57,130 nucleotides of DNA from Patescibacteria group bacterium (GTDB lineage Bacteria > Patescibacteriota > Minisyncoccia > Phycocordibacterales > CSBR16-119): positions 1-57,130 of the forward strand of contig JAUPTX010000004.1 of the NCBI GenBank assembly GCA_030917865.1, in the 5' to 3' direction. The translations under genes and the position numbers were made by a program. This document shows positions 36,361 to 47,550 of this stretch, one piece after another (position 1 is the first letter of the stretch; each line of letters opens with the position of its first letter). A model generated the notes under the pieces. The model ran no database searches. It was given only the letters and a program-made list of their open reading frames with translations, and was not told the DNA's origin.

Positions 36361-37005
36361 ATGGATAAAGATAAACTGCTTATCACTGGAATGAGTCCAG
36401 GCAATGGATACTTTAAACAAGAAGTTATAGACAAACTTCTTGTTTATTGTTCCGAAAAATATTCTAAAGTAGAAATTTGTATTCCTGATATTCCTGCAAT
36501 TTATACTTATCTTGCGCTTGGATATTCTGAAAATAAGGCTAGAGAAAAAGCCATACGTTTACAGGGAAATAATTATCGCAATAGAATAAATAATGTATTT
36601 ACTACTAGAAACTTAAATCCTGATAATATTAAAATTTGGAATTGGGCTAAAGATGGTGTTGAGGAAAATCCCATTTATAGGGAATGCTTTGATGCTATAA
36701 AAAATCTTTACGATAATAATATTGATTTCAAAAAAGATATAAATATGGCAACTGAAGAAGTCTTGGTTAATAATCAGTTTAAAAAGAAGGAATTATCTAA
36801 AGATGATATTGTTATGGGTGCACACTATATTATCTCTGAGTTTGCCTTTATTCTTTATATTTCAAAAACTATAAAAGATTACAATCATTTTATTTTCGGA
36901 TATCATAGGCCTTGGCCCGTTTGGGAAAAGTTTATTGCTGGGGGATATGATGGCGAGAAAAAAGATAATCTAAGTTTTTTATTGTTACCAAATTTTTCAA
37001 ATTAA
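36361..37005 (+). CDS. tRNA-dependent cyclodipeptide synthase (CDPS, NYH type)
   Basis: GMSPGNGYF (catalytic Ser, Asn), [13 protein letters not shown] (Tyr/Glu), GYHRPW; 214 aa, AlbC-like layout. Confidence 0.85.
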
Positions 37006-37939: not shown

Positions 37940-37971
37940 AAGAGCGTCGGGGTCTTAACCCCGACGCTCTT
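37940..37971. terminator. GC-rich bidirectional terminator (unit 7 / dnaJ)
   Basis: aagagcgtcgggg-tcttaa-ccccgacgctctt. Confidence 0.85.
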
Positions 37972-37985
37972 GCGCTGATGTGTTC

Positions 37986-38762
37986 TCACACGAACTCTAT
38001 GTCGCCACCTTTTTCGGGATCTGTCTTCCGCCATATATACAGCCCGCTTACCACAAAAGTGATGGTTATGATGCTGGCGATTGTGACCATGAAGAGCTTC
38101 TTACTCTCTTGGTCTGACCACTCAAACCCGAAGGGAAAAGACAGTAGGCCAAAAAAAATGGCCAGCACTACAATTTGTCCCCAATCATCGTGCGGGTAGT
38201 TGCTCTTGATTTTTGCCACAATGGTGGCAATGAGCCCAGCGCCGTATCCCCACCAGCCTAAATAGTTGGCGGCGATGATAGTTAGAATCATCGCTATTCC
38301 AACTAGAGAAAAAGTGGTTGGTGAATCATGCGGAACTATGGTTGCACAGAAAAGGCTTATGACTAGGCCAATAATAATCAGCCAAAATCTCAAGGGGTGA
38401 CCATAGCTGCTCTCTTGGAGGTGTTCTTTTGCGGTAACTATTTCCTTTCCGGTCATTTCAAATTCGTGGCTCGTTATTCTAGCATCGTTTATTAGAAATG
38501 GGAATTTCCCTAAATTAAATCTTGTCACATTTTCAGTGACCTTCTCTCTCTTCACAGATCCGCCATTCCTCATGATACGTATTTCTTCCCAAGTGAAGAT
38601 CCTTCCTTCGGGTTGTGTGATGGGCATAAGAGTGCTGTTTTCAAACCAGCTATATGTTCCGTCTTGGTTTTGCACTATCACCGACTCAGAGCCGATGAAA
38701 AAAGGTTGCGCAAGTGCCATTTGTGCGATTGCGATCAGGGCGAAGGCTATCAAGGTTCTCAT
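37986..38762 (-). CDS. Orphan protein with signal peptide and multiple C-terminal TMs (unit 7)
   Basis: MRTLIAFALIAIAQMALA|Q; leader aacaaaaaacaaacgaac; GC-richer. Confidence 0.75.
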   Translation of the reverse strand: MRTLIAFALIAIAQMALAQPFFIGSESVIVQNQDGTYSWFENSTLMPITQPEGRIFTWEEIRIMRNGGSVKREKVTENVTRFNLGKFPFLINDARITSHEFEMTGKEIVTAKEHLQESSYGHPLRFWLIIIGLVISLFCATIVPHDSPTTFSLVGIAMILTIIAANYLGWWGYGAGLIATIVAKIKSNYPHDDWGQIVVLAIFFGLLSFPFGFEWSDQESKKLFMVTIASIITITFVVSGLYIWRKTDPEKGGDIEFV

Positions 38763-38812
38763 GTTCGTTTGTTTTTTGTTCAAAGAAAATTTAGCATAAA
38801 TGGTGGATATTT

Positions 38813-38845
38813 AAAAGGTCGGCACGCTCCGCGTGCCGACCTTTT
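38813..38845. terminator. GC-rich hairpin insulating unit 7 from the cysS operon
   Basis: aaaaggtcggcacgc-tcc-gcgtgccgacctttt. Confidence 0.8.
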
Positions 38846-38848
38846 ATT

Positions 38849-39526
38849 TTAAAAATCTTTATAAAAAGTTTTCATTATGAATTCTCGAAGTAAGAATATT
38901 AAGAGAGCGAGAAGTATAAATCCAGAGAATTTTGCCATTATTTCTATAACTTCTCCTGCGACCGTGTATGGTTCAACCAAAGGCGTTATACCTAAAAGAA
39001 TTTGAAACGCCCAGTTTAGGCTCTTCGGTAAATCTGCAAGTGGTAAATTATGAAATTCAAAAATATAAATTAAACCACCAAACAGTACAGTAAAAGTAAA
39101 CAGAGCTTTAAAGTAGAAAAAGAAATCTATTTCTTGTTCTTTTTTTAATCTAGTTTCAATATCATTTGCAACTTGTGAAAATTTGAAAACTCGTAGCATT
39201 CTGAAAAGTCTCGATATTCTTATAACTCTCAAAGATTTTAAGAAAACAAAATTTCCAAAACCTAAAAGTGTCGGGAGTATCGAAAGCAAATCCGCGATAC
39301 CATAAAAGCTAAAAATATATTTTAGTTTGTTTTTTGTTGTGAAAATTCTGACCAAGTATTCTATAACGAATATAACAACAACAGCTATTTCTATTTTGTA
39401 GAAAATATTTGCATATTCTCGGAGGTCAGGAACAGTTTCTGCGGCGATAGTAGTCAAAGAAAAAACAGTCACAAGTGCTAGTAAATCTTCAGCTATCAAT
39501 ATGAGTTTGTTTTTGTTCATAGGCAA
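38849..39526 (-). CDS. Voltage-sensor-type ion transporter with atypical pore
   Basis: FVIEYLVRI, IADLLSILP, S4 LKSLRVIRISRLFRMLRVFK; no TVGYG filter. Confidence 0.8.
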   Translation of the reverse strand: MPMNKNKLILIAEDLLALVTVFSLTTIAAETVPDLREYANIFYKIEIAVVVIFVIEYLVRIFTTKNKLKYIFSFYGIADLLSILPTLLGFGNFVFLKSLRVIRISRLFRMLRVFKFSQVANDIETRLKKEQEIDFFFYFKALFTFTVLFGGLIYIFEFHNLPLADLPKSLNWAFQILLGITPLVEPYTVAGEVIEIMAKFSGFILLALLIFLLREFIMKTFYKDF

Positions 39527-39542
39527 AGTAGTTAATTAATAA

Positions 39543-40892
39543 TTAAAGTTTAAAAACCTCTGTTCCAGATTCTGTATCTTTTATTTTGTAACCAAGATTT
39601 TTTATTTCTTCTCTTATTCTATCAGATTCTTGCCAGTTTTTTTCTTTTCTTGCTAGATTTCTCGCTTCTATTAGCTTCAAAATATTTTCTGGTGCTTGTT
39701 CTTTTTTCCAGTCTTTAATCCCGAGACCTAAAACTGTATCAAATTTTAAAATAGTTGCTTTCTTTTCTTCATCTTTTACTTTTTCATCTTTTATAATTTT
39801 CCAGAGAGTTGCAAGAGCTTCGCCAGTGTTTAGGTTGTCGTTCATCGCTTCATCAAAAAGATTTTTATACTGTTCGTTTATTTTTCCACCTTCTGGTAGA
39901 TTCAGGTAATAACTCTTTAGTTTTTTAAGAGCGTTCGAAGACGCAGAAAGACCTTCCCATGTGAAGTTAACTATCGTTTTGTAGTTCGCTTGAAGTAGCC
40001 AATAGCGATAATCGATAGGTGAAAAGCCCTTTTCTTGTAAATCTTTTAATCGATAATCGTTCTTTAAGGATTTAGACATTTTCTTACCGTCTATCAAAAG
40101 GTGTTCGTTGTGAAGCCAATAGTTAACAAATTTGTGCCCCGATGCGCATTCTGATTGAGCTATTTCGTTTTCGTGGTGAGGAAATGTTAAATCAACTCCA
40201 CCAGTGTGAATATCAAAATGATCTCCTAAATATTTTGTAGACATTGCTGAACATTCTATATGCCAACCAGGACGTCCGCGACCAATAGGTGTGTCCCAAT
40301 AAACGTCACCGTCGTTTTGATCCCAAGCTTTCCACAAAGCGAAATCCTCAGCATTTTCTTTGTCGTATTCGTCTTTTTTAATTCTGCTTTTTGTATTGTT
40401 TTCTATTTTTTCTAAATCAAGACCAGAAAGTTTGCCGTAACTTTTGAATTTTTTGATATCAAAATAAACAGAACCATCATCGCCTTTATATGCGAAACCT
40501 TTTTCTAAAAGCTCCTCTGTCATTTGCACCATTTCTTTTATGTGATCTGTTGCTTTTGGTTGTTTTGTTGCCGGCTCGATATTCAGATCTTTCAACTCTC
40601 GGTTAAATTCTTTTGTGTAAAATTCTGTAAAATCAAGCAGGCTTTCTCCACGAGCGATAGAGTCGCGGATTGTTTTGTCGTCTATGTCGGTGATGTTCAT
40701 CACGTGCATCACATCGTAGCCAATGTATTTCAAATATCTTTTTAAAATATCTGCGAAAATAAATGCGCGGTAGTTGCCAATGTGCGGATAGTTGTAAACC
40801 GTCGGACCGCAAGAATAAAGGCCAACATGACCTTCTTTAATAGGTTTAAATACTTCCTCTTTTTTTGTCAGAGTGTTTAAAAGTTTGAGCAT
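39543..40892 (-). CDS. cysS: Cysteine--tRNA ligase
   Basis: CGPTVY..HIGN, DFALWK, GRPGWHIECSAM, KMSKS. Confidence 0.98.
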   Translation of the reverse strand: MLKLLNTLTKKEEVFKPIKEGHVGLYSCGPTVYNYPHIGNYRAFIFADILKRYLKYIGYDVMHVMNITDIDDKTIRDSIARGESLLDFTEFYTKEFNRELKDLNIEPATKQPKATDHIKEMVQMTEELLEKGFAYKGDDGSVYFDIKKFKSYGKLSGLDLEKIENNTKSRIKKDEYDKENAEDFALWKAWDQNDGDVYWDTPIGRGRPGWHIECSAMSTKYLGDHFDIHTGGVDLTFPHHENEIAQSECASGHKFVNYWLHNEHLLIDGKKMSKSLKNDYRLKDLQEKGFSPIDYRYWLLQANYKTIVNFTWEGLSASSNALKKLKSYYLNLPEGGKINEQYKNLFDEAMNDNLNTGEALATLWKIIKDEKVKDEEKKATILKFDTVLGLGIKDWKKEQAPENILKLIEARNLARKEKNWQESDRIREEIKNLGYKIKDTESGTEVFKL

Positions 40893-40934
40893 CTTTGTAT
40901 TTTAATATTTTTTCGGTTTAAATAAAAGACTTGA

Positions 40935-41858
40935 TTAAAGCCATTTCTTGTTTTTAAAATACACGAACATCACAAGTCCTGTTAGAACCATCGCTCCTAT
41001 AACCACGAAAAAGTCTGAGATTGTCTGGATCAAGATTATTTCATCGCTAACATTCATACCGAATACCTGAGTTATCAAGGTGATAGGTAGCATCATAAAA
41101 GTTATGATCGTTAGAGTTTTTATTGTTTCGTTTGTTTTGGTTGTCAGGAGAGTGTCGTTCGTGTCGCGCATGTCGTTTAGAAGTTCTTTGTACCAGTTTA
41201 TGTTGCTGTTTATCTTGTTGTATTCACTGAAAATCATACTCATACTAAAAGAAAATCCACTGCCAAACATATCTACGCCTGCAGACTCTACGGATTTTAT
41301 AACATCTCCGTGAAAGCTGATCGCTTTTTTAATTTTAATTATTTTTCTGTTTGTATAAGAAATACTGTTCACCGCATCTCTTTCTTTGCCGTTGTAAATA
41401 TCGTTTTCTATTTTTTCCAGATTTACAGCGACACCGTCGAGCTGATTGTCTAAATATTTATACAAATGTTTAAGAATATAAAAGAAAAGATAGCCAGGAT
41501 TTTGGTTTACGTTGTTTCTTTCTAAAATAGACTCATTTTGGAAAATTTTAGAGAAGTCGAAAAAAGGATCTATCGTTTGATAGTGTGTTGTTATTAAAAA
41601 GTCTTTGCTGATGATAAAGTCTATTTCTTTTTCTATTACAACTCTTTCTTTTGGGTCGATAAAAGGGAAGTGCATTACCAGATAGATAAAACCCTCTTTT
41701 TCATAGTAATCAACTTTTGATTTTAATGTCTCAGTCAGGAGTTCTTCGCCTATTAGTTTAGGAATTTTGTATTCATCTACTATTTCTATAATCTCGTTCC
41801 TGTTTGGCTTTTCTATATCTATCCAGGTGAGATTCTTTTGTTTGAATTTAGTGATCAT
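40935..41858 (-). CDS. corA: CorA family Mg2+/Co2+ transporter
   Basis: WIDIEKP, NETIKTLT, FGMN signature, KKWL end. Confidence 0.92.
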   Translation of the reverse strand: MITKFKQKNLTWIDIEKPNRNEIIEIVDEYKIPKLIGEELLTETLKSKVDYYEKEGFIYLVMHFPFIDPKERVVIEKEIDFIISKDFLITTHYQTIDPFFDFSKIFQNESILERNNVNQNPGYLFFYILKHLYKYLDNQLDGVAVNLEKIENDIYNGKERDAVNSISYTNRKIIKIKKAISFHGDVIKSVESAGVDMFGSGFSFSMSMIFSEYNKINSNINWYKELLNDMRDTNDTLLTTKTNETIKTLTIITFMMLPITLITQVFGMNVSDEIILIQTISDFFVVIGAMVLTGLVMFVYFKNKKWL

Positions 41859-41962
41859 AACTAGTCAGATTATAACTTAGATTTGGCTAAAAAAGTCTAT
41901 TAAATTGGGGATATTGGGAAATACTTGCATTTTTTTATAAATAGGTTAAAATACTCCCTGTT

Positions 41963-42277
41963 ATGAAATTCGCAGTAATTAGAACAGGCGGAAAGCAATA
42001 TAAGGTGTCTGAAGGTGAAATCGTGAAAATCGAGAAGCTTTTGGGCGACCACAAAGAAGGCGATAAAGTTGTCTTCGAAGACGTTCTTTTGGTTGACGAC
42101 GGAAAGTCAACAGAAATCGGAACTCCTAAGCTTTCAAACAAAGTAGAAGCTACAATCGAAAAGATTGATAGAGAAGATACAGTTACAGTTATCAAATACA
42201 AGGCTAAAAGTAACTACTTCAAAAAAAGAGGTCACAGACAACCATTCTTTAAAGTAAAAATAGCAAAAATCTCTTAA
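41963..42277 (+). CDS. rplU: 50S ribosomal protein bL21
   Basis: FAVIRTGGKQYKV, GHRQP. Confidence 0.97.
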   Translation: MKFAVIRTGGKQYKVSEGEIVKIEKLLGDHKEGDKVVFEDVLLVDDGKSTEIGTPKLSNKVEATIEKIDREDTVTVIKYKAKSNYFKKRGHRQPFFKVKIAKIS

Positions 42278-42279
42278 TC

Positions 42280-42304
42280 AAAAATCCCCCCAAAGGGGAT
42301 TTTT
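42280..42304 (+). terminator. rplU terminator
   Basis: aaaatcccc-ccaaa-ggggattttt. Confidence 0.75.
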
Positions 42305-42306
42305 GA

Positions 42307-42335
42307 TTGACCAATTTATGTTTTTTATGTATTGT
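42307..42335 (+). promoter_or_regulatory. Sigma70-like promoter of unit 8
   Basis: TTGACC-N17-TATTGT. Confidence 0.6.
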
Positions 42336-42354
42336 TATACAAAATCGAACCTGC

Positions 42355-42780
42355 ATGAGAAAGCTCTTTTCCTTAATTTTGGTCGTTATATCAACGACCG
42401 CAAGTCTCTTCGCGCAGATGCTGCCTACTGCCGACGGTGGTGGGTATTATCTGCCGCCCGAAAATCAGGTAGAGCGACCAATCGCACCTCCTGTTGGAGT
42501 GGGTTACCTGAAGATCTCTGTTATCGATGGTGGACATATTCGGTCCATCTTTATACCGTTGGATGCTGTGGATGCTGATCATTTCGTTCTACGTCCACGT
42601 ATTGTTGGCGAATCGAGTCCTCGGCCAATGGTGGTAGAGGTGCACAGGAGGGAAGATGGATACGTTATCGATCCGCAGTATTTGCCACTGTTTCGTTACC
42701 AAGGAGGAGTCCTCCTGTTCGGTGGTAAGTTCGTGGAAGCATTCGATGTCTATCCATCACACAAGGTGTATGGTCCATAG
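42355..42780 (+). CDS. Orphan secreted protein (unit 8)
   Basis: MRKLFSLILVVISTTASLFA|Q signal peptide; GC-rich codons. Confidence 0.75.
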   Translation: MRKLFSLILVVISTTASLFAQMLPTADGGGYYLPPENQVERPIAPPVGVGYLKISVIDGGHIRSIFIPLDAVDADHFVLRPRIVGESSPRPMVVEVHRREDGYVIDPQYLPLFRYQGGVLLFGGKFVEAFDVYPSHKVYGP

Positions 42781-42797
42781 AAAGGACTCAGCACAAT

Positions 42798-42824
42798 AAA
42801 GCCCCGGGTCAAGCCCGGGGTTTT
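42798..42824 (+). terminator. Terminator of unit 8
   Basis: aaagccccggg-tcaag-cccggggtttt. Confidence 0.85.
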
Positions 42825-42826
42825 GC

Positions 42827-42854
42827 TTGACAAAATATATAATTTGTGTATAAT
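42827..42854 (+). promoter_or_regulatory. Consensus sigma70 promoter of unit 9
   Basis: TTGACA-N16-TATAAT, 2 nt after the previous terminator. Confidence 0.85.
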
Positions 42855-42901
42855 ATAATAGAACCGCCCTCTTACCAGGGCATAAAAACGAAAATACCGT
42901 C

Positions 42902-43288
42902 ATGAAGAAGTTCCTTTCAATTTTCACCATCACCTTCGGGTTGGTGGCAGGTGTGAACGCGCAGTCGGAAACCCGGCCCCCTGATGGGTTTGGTCTTCCG
43001 GTGCCTGGATCCTCCGCAGAAGTATCTGCATGGGAGGAGGCGTGCAAGTTCAACACGGATGGTGAGACCTGCACGGTCACCATCCGTTACACCTCGGATA
43101 CTTATCCCTTGGAGTTTATCCAGGGTGACAAAGTGCTCGATGTTGTCTACGACAAGGACGCCGAAATCGGCTTCCAGGTCGTGGAAGGTGTGGTGTATGA
43201 GAAACTGCCTGGTGGCGGCTACTCGTACGTTCTGGAGATCAAGAATCCCCGGGGGCGCACCTATATCATGAAGAGGGTGGGCGCGTAG
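42902..43288 (+). CDS. Orphan secreted protein (unit 9)
   Basis: MKKFLSIFTITFGLVAGVNA|Q signal peptide; strongly GC-rich third positions. Confidence 0.78.
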   Translation: MKKFLSIFTITFGLVAGVNAQSETRPPDGFGLPVPGSSAEVSAWEEACKFNTDGETCTVTIRYTSDTYPLEFIQGDKVLDVVYDKDAEIGFQVVEGVVYEKLPGGGYSYVLEIKNPRGRTYIMKRVGA

Positions 43289-43304
43289 CCTACACTCTCG
43301 GAAC

Positions 43305-43336
43305 AAAAAAGCCTCGGCATATCGCCGGGGCTTTTT
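43305..43336. terminator. Terminator of unit 9 / recR
   Basis: aaaaaagcctcggc-atatc-gccggggcttttt. Confidence 0.85.
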
Positions 43337-45488: not shown

Positions 45489-45878
45489 ATGAGTAAAAAG
45501 ACAACCTTTCGCTCAATGGTCGCTAATGTGACACTCTCTCAATCTATGCATGGAGAAGAGGACGTCAAGTTTCCTGCGGACACTGATTCGGAAGACTCCC
45601 AAGAAGTTGAAGGGGGTGATGACGAAGGTGAAGACCTTGACCCTGTGTCAAAAGAGGTCGGACAGATCTTTGATGAGTGTGGGTTAAAAGCCTTACACTC
45701 AATTGTCTCGCGCTCTGAAATGGAAATGGCTGAACGCAGACCGCTATCTGGAGCTTACGATGATGAGTCTCCTTCTCCCAAGCCCGTAAAAAAGCATGTG
45801 CGCAATGTTCTCGGTGTGAAAGGCAAGAATGCCGGGATATCACTGCTTCCATTTCCACACAGGCCGCACGGTAAATAA
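45489..45878 (+). CDS. Orphan acidic, probably disordered protein (unit 10)
   Basis: Leader aaaccaccaaaaccaagaaatc; D/E-rich middle, basic tail; GC-richer. Confidence 0.7.
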   Translation: MSKKTTFRSMVANVTLSQSMHGEEDVKFPADTDSEDSQEVEGGDDEGEDLDPVSKEVGQIFDECGLKALHSIVSRSEMEMAERRPLSGAYDDESPSPKPVKKHVRNVLGVKGKNAGISLLPFPHRPHGK

Positions 45879-46950: not shown

Positions 46951-47550
46951 ATGGATATAAAATATATAAGATTTATAGTTTTTGTTTTGGTGATTGTTGC
47001 TCTAGTTTTTGTCTTAAACAAAAAAACGGTCTCAAATGAAAAAGTTGGACACCATGTTATGAGTGATGGAACCGTTATGAAAAATGGTGATACTCATATG
47101 CATGGCTCTATGATGGTTTCAAATGATCAAGAGTTTTTGGCAGGGATGATACCGCACCACGAAGAAGCAGTGTTGACAGCAAAGATCGTTTTGGAGAAGG
47201 GTGGAACTTTTCCAGAAATCAAAACTCTAGCTGAAAATATAATAGTTGCCCAAGAAAAAGAAATAGAAGATATGAAATCTTGGTATAAAGAAATAACAGG
47301 AGATGAATATAAAGATTCTGGAAACTACGATCCAATGATGAGAGATTTATCAAATCTTTCTAAAGAAGAATTAGACAAAACTTTTTTGGAAGATATGGTT
47401 GTTCACCATATGGGAGCTATCATGATGGCAGAGCAAGCTCTTGATTTTAGTGAAAATGAAAATATAAAAAATTTAAGCAGGGAAATAGTGAAATCTCAAT
47501 CAGAAGAAATAAAAGAAATGAGAAATTATTTAATAAGTAAATTTAAATAA
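46951..47550 (+). CDS. DUF305/CopM-like His/Met-rich ferritin-fold protein
   Basis: Repeated FL..MI.HH..A..MA and Q..EI..M motifs; N-terminal TM. Confidence 0.85.
   Translation: MDIKYIRFIVFVLVIVALVFVLNKKTVSNEKVGHHVMSDGTVMKNGDTHMHGSMMVSNDQEFLAGMIPHHEEAVLTAKIVLEKGGTFPEIKTLAENIIVAQEKEIEDMKSWYKEITGDEYKDSGNYDPMMRDLSNLSKEELDKTFLEDMVVHHMGAIMMAEQALDFSENENIKNLSREIVKSQSEEIKEMRNYLISKFK

Follow-up and report, generated by a model that had tools for sequence, protein, structure and literature searches.

Why do three small genes of a bacterium related to Saccharibacteria encode signal peptides that are each followed by Gln, a feature known from Bacteroidota? The question comes from a stretch of 57,130 nucleotides (hereafter the window), contig C15 of the genome assembly G000, in which an initial annotation had described three open reading frames (ORFs) as cassettes. 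We call them 38762(-), 42355(+) and 42902(+) after their start positions. The answer that we came to, an even call in our judgement, is that the three proteins are products of the bacterium's own and would be adapted to the envelope of a host bearing a type IX secretion system (T9SS). What points to it is a Gln that is invariant among homologues, T9SS sorting tails on sister genes, and T9SS, Omp85 and glutaminyl cyclase genes that were searched for and not found in five near-complete genomes of the family.

The N-termini read exactly as the initial annotation had claimed, with Gln at position +1 in all three. From its ATG, the 38762(-) ORF begins MRTLIAFALIAIAQMALA|Q and continues QPFF; 42355(+) begins MRKLFSLILVVISTTASLFA|Q (...TTASLFA|QMLP...) and 42902(+) begins MKKFLSIFTITFGLVAGVNA|Q (...GLVAGVNA|QSET...), the bar being a cleavage site predicted from the -3/-1 rule and a heuristic of our own. 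In each case a basic n-region precedes a hydrophobic core of 10-14 residues, with A, L or V at -3 and A at -1, and all three read as type I signal peptides, both directly and by the heuristic. A signal peptidase I gene is present in the same genome (PF10502, 117.9 bits, G000:C4:3-395). Export would go through the bacterium's own Sec, its own signal peptidase I would cut after small-x-Ala, and the mature proteins would then start with Gln.

How much three out of three is worth depends on the background chosen. The probability of such a count by chance is 2e-5 at the Gln frequency of the proteome (0.027) and 7e-4 at a rate of below 9%, the Gln-first value given for most Chlorobi in excerpts of PMC5837995, but only 0.09-0.23 at the rate read by hand in G000 itself (44-61%). 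The case for the Gln mattering is stronger from the homologues than from this count, because there the Gln is invariant in all. For 42902(+), the family set held 22 sequences (the window protein, P0002, P0003 and 19 of 23 profile matches, their overlap with the slot loci described below being unchecked); all 21 intact N-termini read [A/G]|Q, with -2, +2 and +3 varying freely, and the truncated 22nd member, P0010, reads NA|Q too. The tally script looked for an [A/G]|Q site and is therefore not an independent count; the same was seen by eye in the sequences. The 42355(+) family showed Gln in 5/5 members, which are 17-39% identical to the window protein; its alignment (A4) has only seven invariant columns, A20 (-1) and Q21 (+1) among them. 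All four members of the 38762(-) family, including L017 of G006, P0032 and P0033, are Gln-first with a mature start QPFFI. The slot between rplU and recR that holds 42355(+) and 42902(+) is syntenic in four genomes of the same genus (G002, G003, G005 and G006), as well as in a genome from a different genus, G013. Each carries one to four small GC-rich ORFs there, and 13/13 of these read small-x-small|Q. Comparison of the sequences thus provides strong evidence that the +1 Gln is under purifying selection and that the residue would matter. By analogy, the Gln would most likely be kept since an N-terminal Gln can turn into pyroglutamate, blocking aminopeptidases. Excerpts of PMC10653852 report that pyroglutamate stabilises Q-rule proteins, and excerpts of PMC5837995 that N-terminal Gln can cyclise spontaneously.

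The link to T9SS came from sister genes. A six-frame search with PF18962 (Por_Secre_tail), the T9SS type A sorting tail or C-terminal domain (CTD), gave matches above cut-off in 21/61 genomes. These tails were found in all 19 other genomes of the family, across its four genera, in 3/41 genomes of other families in the order, and in 0/14 named controls. Class-wide, 12/300 genomes matched, spread over a few other families, with seven in one genus (g94). The type B CTD (PF13585) was found in 0/20 family genomes; no control rang either. Two Gln-first proteins of G003 (same genus, completeness 97%) scored above cut-off (32.7 and 29.6 bits). In G000, a protein of 602 aa, shifted in GC content at third codon positions (GC3), scored below it at its extreme C-terminus (19.5-21.6 bits with Por_Secre_tail, 19.9 with TIGR04183). 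The tails of the sister genes run from YPNP through GxY to a terminal K-L-I-K-Q, and that of the 602-aa protein reads YPNP...GVY...VVK. Among 29 CTD ORFs recovered, 22 had a readable signal peptide and Gln stood at +1 in 22/22. As for the rest, the 602-aa ORF was cut in its recovered locus, the full ORF reading LSSG|Q, and the other six were cut or unclear. Between same-genus orthologues, identity was 0.44-0.62 in the CTD and 0.25-0.57 in the body, so the tail is conserved no less than the body. In the Atlas, the proteins resembling the 602-aa one were clusters combining a beta-propeller with Por_Secre_tail, with Bacteroidota as their commonest source (score 0.94). As a side observation, one CTD ORF, L096 (G013:C1, ~75996-76202), seemingly consists of just a signal peptide (...TTSLLA|Q) fused to a sorting tail.

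The machinery that such tails serve was searched for in five family genomes of 96-100% completeness (G003, G005, G008, G009 and G016). SprA and GldM were not found, nor was PorU, which gave only fragments of 13-16 bits. PorV and Omp85 were not found with searches in which the controls rang, Omp85 being 0/5 against seven positive diderm controls; among the T9SS parts, a control rang for PorV alone. The initial annotation had proposed looking for a glutaminyl cyclase; neither PF05096 nor PF04389 gave a match in the five genomes or in G000 (76% complete), while controls rang. Since the searches turned up no gene for a cyclase, cyclisation of the Gln would be spontaneous or carried out by a foreign enzyme. 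Two relatives go under the label Candidatus Saccharibacteria, and the organism does not belong to Bacteroidota.

Taken together, the three ORFs would be real genes, expressed by the bacterium itself, of a lineage-restricted, fast-evolving, GC3-shifted accessory class that occupies fixed slots between core genes. The class would comprise surface or secreted proteins whose site of action is at or within the envelope of a host with a T9SS (one of the Bacteroidota or a relative of theirs), because sister members carry T9SS tails yet the family shows no T9SS, Omp85 or cyclase.

We then considered how far +1 Gln extends beyond the cassettes. In a hand reading, which picked classical cleavable signals from scan lists and left two lipoproteins out of the G000 set, 14/23 signals of G000 were Gln-first (7/8 in GC3-shifted proteins against 7/16 in those of native GC3), as were 26/43 of G003 (12/14 against 14/29). 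Pooling both genomes, still by hand reading, the difference between shifted and core proteins gave a Fisher p = 0.003. The comparison proposed at the outset, of cassette with core secreted proteins, therefore came out as expected in direction, but +1 Gln was not confined to cassettes. The lone exception among the shifted secreted ORFs of G000 is a doubtful ORF, C16:49057-49320 (-), of 71 aa and GC3 0.70, with a signal-peptide-like N-terminus followed by Thr; it is possibly not a gene. The initial annotation had also contrasted the cassettes with core exported proteins that keep uncleaved anchors. Within the window this holds, the core membrane proteins at 46951, 48280(-), 53244, 55095 and 55831 having N-terminal anchors whose c-region is not polar; genome-wide it does not, since proteins of core GC with cleavable signals exist.

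An automated scan was run with the same rules in five genomes; it counts membrane anchors too and overlooks some true sites. It returned +1 Gln in 7/39 signals of G000, 18/60 of G003, 7/34 of G009 (same family, other genus), 9/58 of G051 and 1/24 of G020, the last two being from other families of the same order. Gln at +2 to +6 occurred only 0-6 times per position. On this approximate scale, four of the five genomes, G051 among them, had Gln as their most frequent +1 residue. The Gln-first proteins of G009 have native GC3 (0.16-0.38).

Several of our observations weigh against the host-envelope reading. Native-GC3 proteins of G000 that are Gln-first include 3/5 pilins of type IV secretion system (T4SS) type, an SLT transglycosylase, and fn3 and DUF11 proteins. 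Gln is commonest at +1 in G051 too (9/58 in the automated scan, ~8/20 by eye), a member of a family with 0 CTD matches. Because core proteins and the CTD-less G051 are Gln-rich as well, +1 Gln alone is no marker of Bacteroidota origin, and it may reflect a more widespread habit that has nothing to do with a host. The automated shares lie far below the hand-read ones, the scan counting membrane anchors. In the three ORFs themselves, neither Pfam nor NCBIfam matched a CTD, and aligning the 42902(+) family (A1) with the CTDs of the lineage (A3) by hhalign gave a probability of 0.8%. All that the three ORFs share with the CTD genes is the GC3 shift, Gln at +1, leaders rich in A and C, and restriction to the lineage. 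The persistence of that shift is not accounted for by a role at a host envelope. Finally, none of the 14 named genomes provided a positive control for the SprA and GldM searches, and G000 is only 76% complete. The proposal that a Bacteroidota export pathway had shaped the ORFs was thus upheld in part: sister Gln-first proteins do carry CTDs in a family with no T9SS or cyclase detected, but core proteins are Gln-rich too and the three ORFs themselves lack the tail. Incidentally, the pilin-domain genes (PF18895) of G000 form a cluster of five at C4:15821-21184, and the three that are Gln-first have native GC3.

These points make up most of the argument for the main rival, in which +1 Gln is a secretome habit of some Saccharibacteria lineages that Bacteroidota have no part in, the three ORFs encoding nothing more than surface proteins specific to the lineage. 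The cause could be a preference of the bacterium's own signal peptidase, or a general safeguard for long-lived proteins outside the cell, through pyroglutamate that forms spontaneously. The Gln-first pilins, SLT, fn3 and DUF11 proteins, the native GC3 of the Gln-first proteins of G009, the Gln-rich secretome of G051 and the lack of a detected cyclase all fit such a habit. Nevertheless, it leaves unexplained that all 22 readable CTD proteins are Gln-first and that T9SS tails occur in 19/19 other family genomes without T9SS; moreover, the low count of G020 means that the habit is not order-wide. We consider this explanation rather unlikely.

A further possibility was that the cassettes are recent horizontal acquisitions from Bacteroidota, in which case the Gln and the sister CTDs would be unselected relics of the donor. 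The composition would fit. The GC3 values of the three ORFs compare with a median of 0.28 and a 95th percentile of 0.45 among G000 ORFs of at least 150 aa, and both G3 and C3 are raised, the elevation lying at synonymous sites. The ORFs form GC-rich islets (0.44-0.56) amid core genes of 0.29-0.36. The signals are of Bacteroidota type, and the only named weak match of the 602-aa protein includes a protein of Flaviaesturariibacter (23% identity, E 4e-6). Homology told otherwise. No Pfam or NCBIfam family matched the three ORFs above cut-off, no close homologue was found among 5.8 billion or 1.84 billion proteins, and word-index matches numbered 3, 4 and 3, each count including the query itself. 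Tblastn against 50,697 phage records gave no match. With the 42902(+) profile, only 23 matches at E <=0.001 were obtained among 1.84 billion representatives, 19 small and four giant. Word-index and profile matches alike were short look-alikes or giant repeat proteins. The sequence and structure searches called for earlier thus detected no Bacteroidota homologue. The slot and the gene families are common to the genus and to G013 of another genus, the Gln and CTD are conserved though the rest diverges to 17-50% identity, and the promoters are of sigma-70 type. As each family turned up only as a small set of rapidly diverging members, with no outside homologue, the Bacteroidota donor put forward by the initial annotation is not supported, a recent one being unlikely. 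Overall, we regard recent transfer as quite improbable.

Structure predictions added little on function. The AF2 model of 42902 (pLDDT 76 overall, >=88 over residues 40-128) predicts, for the mature part of ~108 aa, a beta sandwich of Ig/fn3-like type that has seven strands and contains two conserved Cys. Foldseek/VIA retrieved generic beta sandwiches only (best E 7e-3); the best match (Z 7.8, rmsd 2.9, 84 residues aligned) was an accessory domain of the GH85 enzyme Endo-D, and fn3 domains were retrieved as well. For 42355, the model suggests a small beta domain (pLDDT 81), the best PDB match having Z 4.2. The 38762 protein had no usable Atlas match; its signal peptide is followed by an outside domain of ~100 aa starting QPFFI and then by a hydrophobic C-terminal half, which to the eye looks like about four membrane spans. 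Some relatives of 42902(+) are longer. L005:2013-2810 (G005), P0004 and P0008 bear a C-terminal extension of ~140 aa that ends Gly-x-Tyr ... Lys-rich, tail-like by eye only. In the giant proteins P0018, P0020, P0021 and P0026 (1034-2223 aa), 5-11 stretches each match the C-terminal half of the profile, which suggests that the predicted sandwich may also serve as a repeat module.

The GC3 shift itself extends beyond the three ORFs. In G000, ~42 ORFs of at least 100 aa are shifted, with or without signal peptides and with some doubtful ORFs included. Translational selection was considered as the cause and rejected, dnaK and rplU having a GC3 of only 0.31-0.35. Exchange among GC-richer sister genera of the family is one conceivable cause. 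An AACC lies within 45 nt upstream of 18/42 shifted ORFs against 49/390 others in G000, and of 31/56 against 71/540 in G003. The A/C-rich leaders of shifted genes carry AACC or GAACC shortly downstream of the -10 box (42861-42865 and 42345-42349 in the window) and may be a common regulatory or start-site element. We also noticed, at 45489-45878 (+) of the window, a gene for an acidic protein of 129 aa (GC3 0.44) with an A/C-rich leader, no signal peptide and no family. The shifted class does not consist only of secreted proteins, because this ORF is shifted without a signal peptide.

Next, we looked at how the three ORFs are transcribed. The 38762(-) ORF lies between dnaJ and an ion-transport gene adjoining cysS. 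Each ORF is a unit of its own with its own terminator, and clear sigma-70-type promoters precede two of them (Table 1); the spacer upstream of 38762(-) has no clear -35/-10 pair. In the leader of 42902(+), which recurs in conserved form ahead of the G003 orthologue, CCCT...AGGG forms a small hairpin. TAnnTTTG, the -7 motif of Bacteroidota, occurs in no spacer upstream of the three ORFs; the window as a whole shows no enrichment of it (64 matches, 72 expected), and it is rare upstream of other shifted genes. The claim that the promoters, where clear, are sigma-70-type and not Bacteroidota-type was thus confirmed for two of the three ORFs, and the view that the bacterium's own polymerase would transcribe all three stands. 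Use of Shine-Dalgarno sequences did not separate shifted from native genes, being mostly absent from both. A search for repeats at the cassette borders found terminator hairpins only and no flanking direct repeats; integrase genes were not searched for.

Table 1. Positions in the window of the three ORFs and of the elements that flank them
Feature	Positions	Strand	Details
38762(-) ORF, 258 aa	37986..38762	-	signal peptide residues 1-18 (38762-38709), Gln19 at 38708-38706, GC3 0.51
42355(+) ORF, 141 aa	42355..42780	+	signal peptide residues 1-20 (42355-42414), Gln21 at 42415-42417, GC3 0.44
42902(+) ORF, 128 aa	42902..43288	+	signal peptide residues 1-20 (42902-42961), Gln21 at 42962-42964, GC3 0.70
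Spacer/leader of 38762(-)	38763..38811	-	ends ...TTTGAACAAAAAACAAACGAAC before the ATG
Terminator hairpin of the neighbouring gene	38812-38846		directly upstream of the 38762(-) spacer
Intrinsic terminator of the 38762(-) unit	37940..37971	-	14 pairs and a T run
Promoter of 42355(+)	42307..42335	+	TTGACC-17-TATTGT, sigma-70-like; short leader ...AATCGAACCTGC next
Terminator of the 42355(+) unit	42798..42824	+	GC-rich hairpin and T run; the terminator scan flagged this stem on the - strand only
Promoter driving 42902(+)	42827..42854	+	TTGACA-16-TATAAT, sigma-70-type, 12/12 consensus matches
A/C-rich leader of 42902(+)	42861..42901	+	GAACC starts 6 nt past the -10 box
Intrinsic terminator of the 42902(+) unit	43306..43336	+	shared head-to-head with recR

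This organisation bears on a more exotic scenario, in which the genes are delivered to a Bacteroidota host and expressed there in a T-DNA-like manner, needing the host's codon usage, a Q-rule signal and a T9SS tail. Such delivery would account at once for the GC3 shift, the Q-rule and the CTDs, and the genome does hold T4SS pilin genes. Yet a perfect sigma-70 promoter and intrinsic terminators flank the units, the Bacteroidota motif is missing upstream of the three ORFs and no more frequent in the window than expected, and border repeats were not found; we deem the scenario highly implausible. Hardly any weight is left for chance or artefact, that is, uncleaved anchors or spurious or chimeric ORFs: the gene caller did at first favour an antisense ORF (42917-43306), but conservation of the ORFs, the A|Q site and synteny in several independent assemblies largely refutes this, the models fold confidently, and within a contig of 57 kb the cassettes have core genes on either side.

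Also in the window, between dnaK and dnaJ, is a cyclodipeptide synthase gene at 36361-37005 (+) (PF16715, E 3.6e-26), whose GC of 0.29 is below that of its neighbours. G000 as a whole has 462,646 bases in 17 contigs, a GC of 0.36 and a contamination of 3%.

Coming back to the reading in which the proteins are adapted to a T9SS-bearing host, a more specific version can be put forward, tentatively and as one that we lean against as a whole. One Saccharibacteria family would live on T9SS-bearing Bacteroidota instead of Actinobacteria and would itself make and secrete mimics of host cargo bearing the export marks of the host. We propose these marks to be a Gln N-terminus that turns into pyroglutamate and, on part of the mimics, a sorting tail of T9SS type. 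The PorV/PorU machinery or the periplasm of the host would accept, stabilise or anchor these mimics, and the three ORFs, which may share the function of the CTD genes, would encode tail-less, soluble or membrane-anchored effectors. The hosts of cultivated Saccharibacteria are given as Actinobacteria in excerpts of PMC10633639.

Whatever the explanation, a Q-rule-like Gln bias, strictly conserved in three orphan families, is seen in a genome with relatives labelled Saccharibacteria and with no cyclase found, and it is accompanied by T9SS tails throughout the family although no T9SS was found. If such signals were indeed used at a host envelope, hosts of uncultured ultrasmall bacteria might be predicted from sequence, and one bacterium would have a route to borrow the secretion and anchoring system of another. 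The few CTD-bearing genomes of the class outside the family would be natural replicates for the host idea. In a limited literature collection, we found no paper that connects T9SS, Por_Secre_tail or pyroglutamate, in the sense of a host signal, to Saccharibacteria or Patescibacteria.

Finally, we compared the three ORFs with known systems. They resemble the Q-rule substrates of Bacteroidetes (PMC5837995, PMC10653852) in having a type I signal peptide followed by Gln, with the Gln fixed and its neighbours variable. The Gln-first share, ~60% by hand reading in G000 and G003 but far lower in the automated scan, compares with a mean of 71% in Bacteroidetes according to excerpts of PMC5837995. Unlike in those substrates, the organism is related to Saccharibacteria, without detected Omp85 or either type of glutaminyl cyclase, whereas excerpts of PMC10653852 describe the Q-rule as confined to Bacteroidetes and link it to a glutaminyl cyclase that is essential. 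The comparison with T9SS type A cargo (PF18962/TIGR04183) rests on the sister proteins, which combine canonical C-terminal tails with a Sec signal peptide; the three ORFs differ in having no tail, and the lineage in having no detectable SprA, PorU, PorV or GldM. With small secreted Ig/fn3-like domains, 42902(+) would share a seven-strand beta sandwich, as modelled; its scores are however typical of unrelated sandwiches, and it has no sequence family and no readable function. Phage morons are units of one gene each, deviant in composition, that bring along a promoter and a terminator of their own. The cassettes are like them in being separate units between core genes, with their own terminators, two with a promoter of their own, and a foreign-looking composition, but unlike them they are chromosomal, show no phage match or flanking repeats, and sit in slots conserved across the genus.

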